Assembly: GCA_965279525.1 (NCBI GenBank)
Contig: CBDIIB010000005.1
Coordinates: 608,001 to 672,000, forward strand
Reading direction: 5' to 3'
Length of the DNA: 64,000 bases
From: Tagaea sp.
Lineage (GTDB): Bacteria > Pseudomonadota > Alphaproteobacteria > CACIAM-22H2
The translations under genes were made by a program, and so were the position numbers. The notes beneath the pieces are model-generated. The model saw only the letters and a list, made by a program, of their open reading frames with translations. It was not told the origin of the DNA and ran no database searches. Positions 8,654-10,878 of the stretch are shown one piece after another; position 1 is the stretch's first letter; every line of letters starts with the position of its first letter.

Positions 8654-9721
8654 ATGCAGAGCCGCACCCTCGCCATCCTCGCCTTGTCGGCCGCCATCGT
8701 CGGCGGGGCCGCCGTGATCGCCACCGGCGGGCGCAACGACGCGTCCGACGCCGATCCCGCGGGCAAGCTCGTGTTCCCCAACCTGCCCGCGCGCATCGAC
8801 GGCGTGGCGCGCATCGAGATCGAGCGCGGCGGCGAGAAGTTCGAGCTGGTGCGCGACGCCGCCGGCCACTGGACGATGCCGGCCAAAGCGGGCTATCCGG
8901 CCGATTTCCAGCTTGTCCGCCGGCTGGCGCTCGACATGGCGAACATGCGCATCCTCGAGGCGCGCACCGCGAGCAAGGCGCTGCATGCCGACATCGATCT
9001 CGACGGTTCGGGCAAGGACCAGAAGGCCGTGCGCGTGGCGCTGTCCGGCGCGCAGACCGAGCAGTTCGCCAGCGTGCTCGTGGGGCGCACGCGCTTCGGC
9101 CGGCAGGGCAATGCCGGCGACGGCACGTTCGTGCGCCGCGAGGGCGAGGACCAGGTTTGGTTCGTCCAGGGACGTGTGGGCGTGGAACGCGAACAGACCA
9201 AATGGCTTGAAAAGCGCATCGTCGACGTGGTGCGCGAGCGCGTGGCCAAGGCCGTCGTCGTGACGGCCGACGGGGCACGCCTCGAAATATCGCGCGCCAA
9301 GCACGACCAGCAGGATTTCGATCTGGCGGCGGTCCCCGCCGACAAGAAGATCAAGACGGCGTTCGACGTGAACCTCATTGCATCCGCCATCGAAGCCCTC
9401 GACCTCGAGGACGTGCGCAAGGCCGACGGCCTCGCCTTCCTCGGCCAGCGCGACTTCGCCGAATTCACGACGTTCGACGGCCTTGCCGTGCGCGTCGAAT
9501 TCGCCAAGGACGGCGCCGACATCTGGGCGCGCTTCACCGCACGCCACGCGGCTCCGGCCACGCCGGTCGAAGGCGACAAGCTGAAGAAGCCCGACGAGGT
9601 TGCCGCCGAAGCCGCACAGATCGCCAAGCGCACCCACGGCTGGGCCTACCGCGTGCCGGCCTACAAGGCCGAGCAGATGAGCCGGAAGATCGCCGACCTC
9701 GTCGAGGACAAGGGCGCCTGA
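8654..9721 (+). CDS. DUF4340-like exported protein
   Basis: N-terminal anchor; usual fourth gene of Gld-like ABC operons. Confidence 0.75.
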   Translation: MQSRTLAILALSAAIVGGAAVIATGGRNDASDADPAGKLVFPNLPARIDGVARIEIERGGEKFELVRDAAGHWTMPAKAGYPADFQLVRRLALDMANMRILEARTASKALHADIDLDGSGKDQKAVRVALSGAQTEQFASVLVGRTRFGRQGNAGDGTFVRREGEDQVWFVQGRVGVEREQTKWLEKRIVDVVRERVAKAVVVTADGARLEISRAKHDQQDFDLAAVPADKKIKTAFDVNLIASAIEALDLEDVRKADGLAFLGQRDFAEFTTFDGLAVRVEFAKDGADIWARFTARHAAPATPVEGDKLKKPDEVAAEAAQIAKRTHGWAYRVPAYKAEQMSRKIADLVEDKGA

Positions 9722-9751
9722 ACGAGGTCAGGCTCCAGCTCGAATCCCTTA

Positions 9752-9764
9752 CAATACATTGATT
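9752..9764 (-). promoter_or_regulatory. IHF-binding-site match
   Basis: Minus strand AATCAATGTATTG matches WATCAANNNNTTR exactly. Confidence 0.5.
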
Positions 9765-9939
9765 TAGTTTATATTTTTACGCTCGCCGGCATATCAAGTG
9801 AGCCGCGCGCCACCCCCATTCGTGGTATTCCAATTTTGAGATAGCCCCTACCCATTGTGGTGCGCTAGCGTGTTAGGTATATGGCCGAATTGCAATTTTT
9901 GATTCGCAATCGCTGTGCAGGTCAGATTAGAATGTTGGA

Positions 9940-10446
9940 ATGCACTGCGAGACCCTCGCCAAAAACGCGCCTTCGGGCGCGATCCCGGTTGCTATCGAAG
10001 AGCTCTTCGAGAAGCTGCGCCTTGCGCGTGTCAATCGGGAAAAGGCCGAAGCGACGGTCGAAGAAGAACAGGCCAATGCCATCCAGCTCGAGCGTCTGAT
10101 CGCTGGACTGGTCGCTCTTCTCCCGGCGGCCGATCAATCCAAATACCGCGCTAGGCTGAGTCCGGCGGCACCGTCGAAGGGCGGCATTGTCTTCGACAAC
10201 GTCGTCAGCCTTTTCCGCGATGCTCCGAATCAACAGTGGACGCCGACGAGCGTTCAGGCGGCGCTTGAAAAAAAGGGCGTCAGTGCCGACACAAAAGCAA
10301 TCGCAAATATCCTCGCCTATTTGGCGCGGTCCGGAAAACTGGTGCGAGCTGCTCGCGGACATTACGTCTCGCAAGGCTGGATGATCGTCACGAGCGACGA
10401 AATCGAAGCCGATGAGATGAGCCGCGAAAAGTTCGCCGAACTGTAA
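9940..10446 (+). CDS. Hypothetical protein, N-terminal coiled coil plus C-terminal winged-helix-like domain
   Basis: 168-aa ORF; ILAYLARSGKLVRAARGHY resembles a wHTH recognition helix and wing; TAGAAT at 9928-9933 would give a leaderless transcript. Confidence 0.65.
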   Translation: MHCETLAKNAPSGAIPVAIEELFEKLRLARVNREKAEATVEEEQANAIQLERLIAGLVALLPAADQSKYRARLSPAAPSKGGIVFDNVVSLFRDAPNQQWTPTSVQAALEKKGVSADTKAIANILAYLARSGKLVRAARGHYVSQGWMIVTSDEIEADEMSREKFAEL

Positions 10447-10450
10447 GGAG

Positions 10451-10484
10451 GAAAAGAAAACGCCGCCGGTTGGATCGGCGGCGT
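10451..10484 (-). terminator. GC hairpin with A-tract upstream (minus-strand terminator-like)
   Basis: AAAAGAAA followed by ACGCCGCCG-GTTGGAT-CGGCGGCGT. Confidence 0.5.
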
Positions 10485-10491
10485 CAGGAAA

Positions 10492-10577
10492 ACCAGGGTG
10501 GCGAAAATGGTAGACGCAACAGAGTTGGATTCTGTGGGTCCGTGGTGGCCGTGTGGGTTCGAGTCCCGCCCCTGGTA
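10492..10577 (+). tRNA. Non-canonical tRNA: class II Leu-type body with TGG (Pro) anticodon
   Basis: Acceptor ACCAGGG/CCCTGGT + A73; D arm GCG-AAAATGGTAGA-CGC; anticodon arm ACAGA-GTTGGAT-TCTGT; long V arm GGTC/GGCC; T arm GTGGG-TTCGAGT-CCCGC; CCA not encoded. Confidence 0.8.
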
Positions 10578-10602
10578 CATATGTTGAGCGTTCGGTTCTT
10601 GT

Positions 10603-10705
10603 GCCCCTGTGGTGCAATTGGAAAGACACGGCGGTGGCTACACCGCCGTCCCTAGAAGCTGGCCGGCTTCGAAGGACTGTGCAGGTTCGAATCCTGTCAG
10701 GGGCA
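10603..10705 (+). ncRNA. tRNA-like RNA (Leu-type body) lacking a canonical anticodon loop, with an extra-long variable arm
   Basis: Acceptor GCCCCTG/CAGGGGC + A; D arm GTG-CAATTGGAAAGA-CAC; GCGGTG-GCTA-CACCGC (4-nt loop); V arm of ~33 nt; T arm GCAGG-TTCGAAT-CCTGT. Confidence 0.75.
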
Positions 10706-10761
10706 CCCTTAGCAGTCAACACTAAACTCTTGGATTCATTGTCGAATAGAAATTCGGACTC

Positions 10762-10774
10762 TTTCAATCACTTA
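10762..10774 (+). promoter_or_regulatory. IHF-binding-site-like motif
   Basis: TTTCAATCACTTA, one mismatch to WATCAANNNNTTR. Confidence 0.45.
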
Positions 10775-10878
10775 GCTAGCGCCTAGGCCTGCGTCTGCTG
10801 CGCGTTCTCCAACGTACTGCTTCCAAAGGCCTTCGACTCGACAAGAATCCCGTAGCCAAGACAAGGGCGCGTGAGCCT

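Follow-up and report, generated by a model that had tools for sequence, protein, structure and literature searches.

What would a mobile piece of DNA do with a cassette of one small protein gene, one hairpin, and two irregular transfer RNA (tRNA) genes, when the first of these genes joins the body of a leucine tRNA to the anticodon of a proline tRNA? This question is raised by a locus of Tagaea sp. (Alphaproteobacteria; NCBI GenBank assembly GCA_965279525.1, contig CBDIIB010000005.1), which we analyzed within a 64,000-nt stretch of that contig (positions 608,001 to 672,000 of the forward strand; hereafter, the window), and in which an earlier note, made from the letters without database searches, had singled out a compact islet as a candidate new system. 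Compared across genomes, the cassette formed by the protein gene, the hairpin, and the two RNAs (tRNA1 and tRNA2) looks like a selected, horizontally mobile system rather than a set of decayed tRNA genes, and its protein gene and covarying RNA parts are, judging from these comparisons, under purifying selection for structure.

The islet and its leucine-type tRNA

About 1.15 kb of DNA with a low guanine–cytosine (GC) content separates the stop codons of two convergent genes, a DUF4340 gene and a DUF4440/SnoaL-like gene, with GC values of 0.52–0.60 across positions ~9700–10900 of the window versus 0.65–0.74 in the flanks. In the same-genus genomes that hold both flanking genes (L009, L010, L011, and L013; L numbers are our handles for individual loci), the site is empty and the stop codons lie ~10 nt apart. 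The islet DNA was likewise not detected in 40 related genomes, 20 of them from the same genus, the sole matches there being at the level of tRNAs (~70 nt). It is also bounded by a direct repeat, GACAAGGGCGC[C/G]TGA, whose copies are 14/15 identical at a spacing of 1153. Because the site of relatives is empty, the 15-nt repeat frames the islet, and the GC content drops within it, the islet is, as read from its sequence, a strain-specific insertion and a compact mobile module. Neither an integrase nor a transposase gene was found inside it, and no IS1595-type transposase was detected in the window or in the whole 4.35-Mb assembly (tblastn, E<=1e-3).

Much of what the earlier note had claimed of this DNA holds. 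It had described a low-GC segment of ~1.15 kb with one open reading frame (ORF), a hairpin, and two tRNA-shaped genes 25 nt apart, all on the + strand; both the GC drop and these contents are as it said, and its coordinates, 9707-10874, coincide with the outer limits of the direct repeats. The proposal of a mobile module likewise agrees with an insertion that is strain-specific, has direct repeats on both sides, and did not turn up in the search of 20 same-genus genomes, and the alternative that relatives would carry an ordinary tRNA-Leu at this position fails, their site being simply empty.

The tRNA1 gene scores 47.0 bits against the Rfam tRNA model (RF00005; gathering cut-off 29) and tRNA2 scores 33.8 bits, which makes them the third-lowest and the lowest, respectively, of the 47 Rfam tRNA matches genome-wide. 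Of the two, ARAGORN calls only tRNA1, as an 87-nt tRNA-Pro(UGG) whose variable arm is long. In other genomes, tRNA-Leu(UAA) and tRNA-Leu(UAG) come closest to it, at 74–81% identity; in its own genome, the Leu isoacceptors do (~69%). Its geometry comprises a 7-bp acceptor stem, a 3-bp D stem of Leu type with a large D loop, a 5-bp anticodon stem, and a 5-bp T stem; the anticodon loop reads G32-U33-U-G-G-A37-U38, and its predicted fold pairs G32 with U38 and U33 with A37, leaving a UGG triloop.

With regard to identity, tRNA1 has the A73, the A15-U48/G18G19 elbow, and the class II arm of a tRNA-Leu, without a Leu anticodon (NAG or YAA). Passages of PMC9976931 place leucine identity in Escherichia coli in A73, A15-U48, and the G18G19 elbow elements and not in the anticodon, and list as proline determinants the anticodon bases, which are strong, as well as G72, G37, and G15-C48. 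Of these, tRNA1 has G35 and G36 together with the A73 expected of a tRNA-Pro; G72, G37, G15-C48, and the short variable loop of class I are all absent. CCA is encoded in neither tRNA1 nor tRNA2, and is encoded in the host tRNAs. Because a canonical tRNA-Pro(UGG), Pro(CGG), Pro(GGG), and the full set of five Leu isoacceptors are already encoded by the host, tRNA1 is predicted to be surplus to host decoding needs; the presence of a canonical tRNA-Pro(UGG) alongside is established for this genome only, the loose pattern applied to five other hosts having matched tRNA-Met-like anticodon stems.

The features of the islet are collected in table 1. For its expression, we infer that the sigma-70-like candidate in the leader would be the cassette promoter, consensus matches of this type numbering 2 against 0.5 expected. 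A second short direct repeat, GAATCCC[T/G]TA, lies just within the islet ends (9742-9751 and 10845-10854); in sequence, it is close to the 3' half of the T loop and stem of a tRNA, and it could either be left over from tRNA 3' fragments or belong to a recombination site.

Table 1. The islet, its parts, and its borders, in window positions
Feature	Position	Strand	Description
DUF4340 gene	8654-9721	+	left flank; its stop codon bounds the islet
Left direct repeat copy, 15 nt	9707-9721		3'-terminal 15 nt of the DUF4340 gene, stop codon included
Insert proper	9722-10859		low-GC, strain-specific DNA between the 15-nt direct repeat copies
Promoter candidate	9748-9775	+	sigma-70-like CTTACA-16-TATATT in the low-GC leader 5' of ORF168; consensus match only
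ORF168	9940-10446	+	long N-terminal helix and C-terminal winged helix; rare family without a Pfam name
Conserved hairpin	10460-10485	+	7-nt loop GUUGGAU, identical to the tRNA1 anticodon loop; A-rich tract on its 5' side
tRNA1	10492-10577	+	class II, Leu type, with A73, A15, G18G19, U48, long variable arm, and anticodon UGG
tRNA2	10603-10705	+	103-nt tRNA-like RNA with intact acceptor, D, and T arms; A73 followed by CCC
Cassette tail	10706-10859	+	opens with the conserved motif (A)AGTCAA...TAAAC...TTGGATTC
Right direct repeat copy, 15 nt	10860-10874		followed by the native sequence 3' of the empty site
DUF4440/SnoaL-like gene	10879-11358	-	right flank; its stop codon faces the islet

The tRNA(UGG) family, the hairpin, and tRNA2

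A scan of one genome per GTDB species with a pattern made of the Leu D-loop block, a UUGGA anticodon loop, and the T loop recovered Leu-bodied tRNA(UGG) genes at 29 genome loci, distributed over Terriglobia and other Acidobacteriota, Bryobacterales, Gemmatimonadales, Alphaproteobacteria, Chloroflexota, Myxococcales, Phycisphaerales, Solirubrobacterales, and metagenome-assembled genomes (MAGs) of Prevotella. A narrower pattern, GAGTTGGATTC, which represents the loop type of the window, added 16 metagenome loci, and IMG/VR contributed 5 loci with one such tRNA gene each, none within a tRNA cluster. ARAGORN calls a long-arm tRNA-Pro(UGG) at 28/29 genome, 15/16 metagenome, and 5/5 viral loci, and the Rfam tRNA score exceeds the cut-off at 26/29 genome loci. 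Since the patterns fixed the block GGTAGACGC, UUGGA, and the T loop, the constancy of these positions, anticodon and A37 included, is built into the collection.

The family alignment (A4) holds 35 of the 38 distinct sequences, L048, L050, and L063 having been dropped for poor acceptor stems. Across its four cloverleaf stems, 98.3% of cells are paired and compensatory change is seen in 16/20 pairs, a covariation reached by 0/500 shuffles, with 42–48% pairing in slid controls. A73, A15, G18, G19, and the block GGTAGACGC, which the patterns had fixed, are invariant in the 35 members; U48 precedes the T stem in at least 90%, forming the Levitt pair with A15; position 72 (pair 1-97) is U in tRNA1 and C or U across the family; and the variable arm is long throughout. 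As the stems vary, the related loci do not stem from one recent clone. In the other phyla, the anticodon loops are of the ordinary Y32-U33-UGG-A37-N38 form and are apparently capable of decoding.

In the proteobacterial subgroup, the gene order is conserved, running from a small ORF with a helix and a winged helix-turn-helix (wHTH) domain through the hairpin to tRNA1 and, often, to a tRNA2-like RNA. The hairpin (folding energy -20 kcal/mol, z = -3.6) sits 3–18 nt 5' of tRNA1 and is present in 12 distinct sequences, in which its stem shows compensatory change in 7/9 pairs while its loop, GUUGGAU, is constant in all but one. In the exception, L064, the first loop base is C in hairpin and tRNA alike, and the hairpin loop has U for the G35 of the tRNA. 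The hairpin is absent from L079 and L065, and the other phyla have unrelated hairpins or none. The A-rich tract on its 5' side is conserved in related loci. Read on the minus strand (10459-10485), the hairpin, with a T-rich run after it, is scored as an intrinsic terminator, so that it may also halt antisense transcription from the side of the tail or transposase.

As for tRNA2, minimum-energy folding gives a cloverleaf (z = -3.3) in which the acceptor stem has 7 bp, the D arm is Leu-like, and the T arm is perfect. In place of the anticodon arm of tRNA2 stands either a stem of 7 bp closed by a GCUA tetraloop or one of 5 bp whose 8-nt loop has no U33, and its variable arm is a hairpin of ~31 nt; as predicted from these folds, tRNA2 is incapable of decoding. 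Homologs are found in L054, L074–L077, L082, and L047, and more generally a second RNA bearing a T loop lies 3' of tRNA1 in 13/20 loci of the proteobacterial type. In the set of 8 distinct tRNA2 sequences that includes the one of the window (L085, a near-copy of L075, was left out), the acceptor, D, and T stems are 95.8% paired with compensatory change in 8/15 pairs, and the two central hairpins vary in length and loop (4 to 7 nt, or branched). By sequence comparison, the motif that opens the cassette tail also follows the last tRNA in related loci; the tail region of L084 holds a hairpin with 23-nt arms.

Some loci pair the Leu-type tRNA(UGG) with a different companion. In L070 (6329-6402), L071 (2970-3040), and L072 (467-538), which belong to Acidobacteriota or Dongiaceae MAGs, an odd short tRNA lies 5–30 nt from it: a class I tRNA of 75 nt whose anticodon is GCU (Ser), a 71-nt "Cys(GCA)", and a 72-nt "Arg(CCU)" with an aberrant D arm, respectively. 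These pairs may be examples of what Mukai et al. call "polycistrons of irregular tRNAs".

The Tagaea genome holds one further irregular tRNA gene, outside the window, at contig C5:749716-749811 (minus strand; L090:3719-3813). This 96-nt gene resembles an allo-tRNA(UAU): its anticodon is UAU, a tetraloop caps its 5-bp D stem, the anticodon stem has 6 bp, the variable arm is long, and the T arm is good. It scores 24 bits with the Rfam tRNA-Sec model (cut-off 47) and is not detected by the Rfam tRNA model. Its low-GC surroundings are bordered on one side by TniB and a 680-aa protein and on the opposite side by a 791-aa protein of the AAA_13 family (E = 9e-133), which we take to include the PrrC/RloC anticodon nucleases. 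Five further long "tRNAs" called by ARAGORN in this 66% GC genome (contigs C2–C5: Lys CUU of 84 nt, Asp AUC, Arg UCG, Ile GAU of 93 nt, and one with a 4-base anticodon) have no T loop and a coding-like sequence, and were treated as false positives.

Upstream protein genes and transposases

The AlphaFold2 model of ORF168 (predicted local distance difference test score, pLDDT, 83) places a helix at residues 14–59 and a winged helix at residues 80–144. An exhaustive phmmer search of 1.84 billion representatives gave 177 homologs at E<=1e-3, of which 40 were used for the alignment of this family (A1); a word-indexed search returned ORF168 alone. In genomes, homologs are present in 1/49 of the order, in 2/400 of the class (one of them weak and partial), and in 0/400 of a phylum sample. 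No match to plasmids or phages was obtained by tblastn, and the own genome holds no paralog, giving only a chance-level match (E = 0.04). Foldseek comparison of the model with the PDB returned weak matches to winged helices of a generic kind, of which none reached E<=0.001.

AbiEi, a small autoregulator of winged-helix type, is paired with a toxin. Like it, ORF168 has a recognition helix and a wing that match AbiEi winged-helix models, weakly and below threshold (E = 0.0045 with Pfam, E = 0.0025 with PADLOC); unlike it, ORF168 devotes its N-terminal half to one long helix, and no gene for an AbiEii nucleotidyltransferase accompanies it. Indeed, with the AbiEi antitoxin model (PF13338), it reaches 17.5 bits against a cut-off of 25, and the islet has no second protein gene. 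The closest genomic homolog (E = 7e-44; genome G447, L042:424-1251, minus strand) lies downstream of recG and is followed by a 275-aa ORF without a Pfam or PADLOC match; the two may be a two-gene A1-family module that has no tRNA.

In all 16 metagenome loci, an ORF on the same strand ends 5–129 nt 5' of the tRNA, the complete ones being 140–187 aa long and two being cut by contig ends; in the genome loci, an ORF of at least 70 aa lies within 160 nt in 19/29, a few of these looking spurious. In most upstream ORFs, a linker joins an N-terminal helix to a C-terminal winged helix that ends in R..W[YF]. Ten of them form a family of their own (A3), which matches no Pfam family. The winged helices of A1 and A3 align in register with hhalign at E = 0.14, by which homology between the two families is not established, and the A1 profile has marginal matches (E ~1e-3) to the upstream ORFs of L058 and L070.

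In other phyla, genes of further kinds lie immediately 5' of the tRNA. In L055 and L057, it encodes an RmrA-like protein, with a helix-turn-helix (HTH) domain and an M78 peptidase (PADLOC RmrA, E = 1e-66); in L051 and L059, it is SecB-like; and in L052, it encodes a P63C protein. The RmrA-like gene (L055:1381-2511, L057:576-1805), of the type of the RosmerTA antitoxin, ends 14–18 nt before the tRNA(UGG), and in L055 an ORF for a 171-aa membrane-protein-like product follows on the 3' side.

Elements of the IS1595 family combine a DDE transposase that has an N-terminal zinc ribbon with passenger genes that do not serve transposition; here, the passengers would be RNA genes and a small wHTH gene, and the window copy has no transposase. 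An IS1595-family transposase (PF12762 and PF12760) occurs at 14/29 genome, 12/16 metagenome, and 2/5 viral loci (28/50 in total), often within 100–500 nt of the 3' side of the tRNA and in either orientation. Around the transposase genes of L084, L086, and L079, the search for terminal inverted repeats gave nothing convincing, nor did that for an inverted second copy of the tail motif beyond the transposase. In L084 (8409-8700) and L086 (343-716), a small HTH-like ORF on the opposite strand lies between the tail and the transposase gene, whose promoter contains the palindromic motif TGTATGCA...TGCATACA. The idea that the linked transposases undergo a "private recoding" was rejected: Pro accounts for 0/16 minority residues at Leu-conserved columns and Leu for 0/7 at Pro-conserved columns.

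One further islet without a transposase was found in L076, a 29-kb metagenome contig. It is 1167 bp long, low in GC, and framed by a 70-nt direct repeat (725-794 and 1892-1961; 83% identity) in which the 3' end of the gene next to the islet is duplicated, an arrangement that we liken to the 1153-bp, 15-nt repeat arrangement of the window. The L076 repeat hints at insertion into the 3' ends of genes with a replacement end carried along.

These comparisons also bear on how the earlier note had seen the RNAs and their partner. The acceptor, D, and T arms that it called intact are present in the folds of both RNAs, and its leucine-bodied label suits tRNA1, whose nearest relatives are tRNA-Leu in the host and in other genomes. 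Its view that both anticodon arms are abnormal stands for tRNA2, which is structurally aberrant, but not for tRNA1, whose arm is a regular 5 bp with a 7-nt loop, the sole oddities being G32/U38 and the non-Leu anticodon. The covarying stems that it thought would support a system are found in the tRNA1 family, in tRNA2, and in the hairpin. As to conserved linkage, the arrangement of a wHTH-type ORF with an odd tRNA does recur, but the upstream ORFs elsewhere are of other families, and homologs of ORF168 itself do not have linked tRNAs in the contexts available (0/2), so that the A1 family is not generally tRNA-linked.

What the cassette might do

As possible roles, the earlier note had put forward regulated mistranslation, tRNA-decoy defense, or counter-defense. 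The reading that we tentatively favor, at somewhat less than an even chance, is that tRNA1 would be a regulated, leucine-charged tRNA that reads proline codons and serves as a toxic/addictive or defensive payload. We lean to it because of the tRNA identity rules and of the allo-tRNA precedent. The main text of Mukai et al. (2017, Nucleic Acids Research [NAR], PMC5389517) reports allo-tRNAs with a mismatch of identity and anticodon that are translationally active and toxic in E. coli and that lie near toxin–antitoxin systems and transposons. The cassette genes would then be cotranscribed from the leader promoter; RNase P and RNase Z would free both RNAs, and the CCA-adding enzyme would finish their 3' ends; leucyl-tRNA synthetase (LeuRS), blind to the anticodon and needing A73 and the A15-U48/G18G19 elbow, would charge tRNA1 with leucine; and tRNA1 would deliver it at CCN proline codons, a harmful payload requiring regulation. 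The upstream protein, and possibly the hairpin that mimics the anticodon loop, would restrain this payload, while tRNA2 would be an accessory RNA, for instance a processing, stabilizing, or titrating partner. In several loci, the upstream genes are indeed of regulator, antitoxin, or chaperone type (RmrA-like, SecB-like, and, below threshold, AbiEi-like here). As a whole, the cassette could act as a transposon-borne toxin–antitoxin, addiction, or abortive-infection module. We consider it unlikely that all of this applies at once, that is, an RNA-toxin module of toxin–antitoxin or abortive-infection type in which a Leu-tRNA would rewrite Pro codons proteome-wide under the control of the wHTH protein and/or the hairpin, with tRNA2 as its partner and with a spread across phyla through IS1595.

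Several observations weigh against the payload reading. The UGG triloop predicted for tRNA1 would be a poor decoder, prolyl-tRNA synthetase (ProRS) might charge tRNA1 via G35 and G36, and the sharing of GUUGGAU with the hairpin suggests that this loop may be a recognition motif and not an anticodon. The constancy of the anticodon and A37 is, as said, a property of the search patterns. On the side of the protein, the upstream ORFs do not appear to be one sequence family; in the contexts of the strong A1 homologs (G447/L042 and G074/L043), neither Rfam nor ARAGORN finds a tRNA downstream; and in L053 the upstream gene is Fic, of toxin type, so that the pattern of an upstream antitoxin is not uniform.

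The main rival, somewhat less likely in our estimation, would be a nontranslational role, in which tRNA1, tRNA2, and the hairpin present tRNA bodies and the GUUGGAU/UGG loop to a factor that they titrate, sense, or regulate, be it a tRNA-targeting nuclease (of a competitor, a phage, or a defense system), ProRS, a modification enzyme, or the winged-helix protein that the cassette itself encodes. Recognition of the loop would fit its identity with the tRNA1 anticodon loop in 11/12 distinct hairpin sequences while the stem covaries, the joint change to C in L064, and the G32/U38 of tRNA1 that permit the triloop fold; a decoy would also fit a nondecoding tRNA2 that keeps its acceptor, D, and T arms while its central hairpins vary. 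There is precedent in the many allo-tRNA(UAU) species that Mukai et al. judged not to be translational (main text of PMC5389517), and the allo-tRNA-like gene of the same genome adjoins an AAA_13 protein. However, the islet encodes neither a nuclease nor a binding partner, the loops of other phyla look capable of decoding and have no matching hairpin loop, and the winged-helix proteins differ among loci while the loop remains constant.

The remaining explanations are less probable. That the RNAs would serve the IS1595 transposase, for instance by providing a target or landing site, by acting as regulators, or through RNA-processing signals, with the window copy as an orphan left after transposase loss, is improbable: the transposase does accompany 28/50 related loci, often near the 3' side of the tRNA, and the conserved AAGTCAA tail motif stands directly 3' of the tRNA(s), but the terminal inverted repeats and the inverted copy of the tail motif sought beyond the transposase were not identified, the islets without a transposase (the window and L076) carry direct repeats, 15 and 70 nt long, and not a short target duplication of fixed size, and this genome has no such transposase. 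We know of no role for RNA in the DDE transposition of IS1595 elements. A genuine extra tRNA-Pro, charged by ProRS via G35, G36, and A73 and boosting the decoding of CCA/CCG for a mobile element, is highly improbable; UGG and A73 are common to bacterial tRNA-Pro, and anticodon bases are strong Pro determinants, but a class II, Leu-type body without G72, G37, or G15-C48 would be an odd vehicle for it, the host already has its three Pro tRNAs, and both tRNA2 and the hairpin would be left unexplained. Finally, the low GC content, the unencoded CCA, Rfam scores near the bottom of those of the genome's tRNAs, and the lack of an integrase or transposase in the islet could be taken as marks of functionless pseudogenes in a decayed prophage or island tRNA cluster. 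Simple decay is nevertheless excluded in our analysis because the arrangement recurs and the stems covary; with strong covariation in three RNA elements at dozens of loci in several phyla, a conserved gene order, and an empty site in relatives where no ordinary tRNA-Leu is found, this explanation is largely refuted and scarcely credible.

If tRNA1 is the leucine-charged reader of proline codons that we favor, its nearest counterparts would be other tRNAs that break the code. In Streptomyces, tRNA-ProX/tRNA-ProA are Pro-identity tRNAs that read non-Pro codons, are served by a synthetase of their own, ProRSx, and have spread horizontally. The cassette would share with tRNA-ProA a natural, horizontally spread tRNA and a would-be deliberate missense decoding that involves proline, but the logic is reversed, a Leu-identity body bearing a Pro anticodon, and no synthetase gene lies in or beside the islet.

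The closest prior work concerns the allo-tRNAs and "polycistrons of irregular tRNAs", which, in the main text of PMC5389517, likewise have a mismatch between anticodon and identity and a long variable arm, often occur in tandem with other irregular tRNA-like RNAs, and lie near toxin–antitoxin and transposon genes; the IS1595 transposase, RmrA-like, SecB-like, and Fic neighbors place our related loci in similar surroundings. By contrast, allo-tRNAs are of 8/4 or 9/3 geometry, with a long D stem closed by a tetraloop and a 6-bp anticodon stem, none of which is found in tRNA1 (7/5 acceptor/T, 3-bp D stem, 5-bp anticodon stem); tRNA2 is of 7/5 geometry too, and the identity of allo-tRNAs is Ser when that of tRNA1 is Leu-like (A73) (PMC5389517, main text). 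According to the same text, some allo-tRNAs are translationally active and toxic and others are judged nontranslational. It mentions no Leu-bodied UGG species, loop-mimic hairpin, wHTH gene, or IS1595 link, although its supplements may bear on this. Mistranslating tRNA-Ser(UGG) and tRNA-Leu variants, engineered or human, work on the same principle: as the anticodon is ignored by the Ser, Leu, and Ala synthetases, a swap to a Pro anticodon leads to mis-incorporation at Pro codons, with a toxicity that needs restraint. Those of PMC6827378 and PMC11028032, in the excerpts we draw on, are laboratory constructs or rare human variants and not a conserved, mobile bacterial cassette of several parts. 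In the literature at large, we found neither a Leu-bodied tRNA(UGG) nor a loop-mimic hairpin described, nor any connection of tRNAs with IS1595, with the proviso that subscription journals may hold relevant sequences.

As far as sequence can tell, the cassette extends the known mis-identity tRNAs that are carried on mobile elements. If tRNA1 were charged by LeuRS and used by the ribosome, it would constitute a natural, horizontally spreading device for Pro-to-Leu mistranslation, ranging over Acidobacteriota, Gemmatimonadota, Proteobacteria, Chloroflexota, and other phyla, and the violators of the genetic code, so far allo-tRNAs and tRNA-ProX, would be widened to ordinary-looking 7/5 tRNAs that are annotated "tRNA-Pro". 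The hairpin, tRNA2, and the IS1595 association bear on the question raised in 2017 of what purpose irregular tRNAs serve on mobile elements. In practical terms, such tRNA genes skew inferences on codons and on the genetic code that are made from tRNAs; the tRNAs themselves are natural scaffolds for orthogonal tRNAs.

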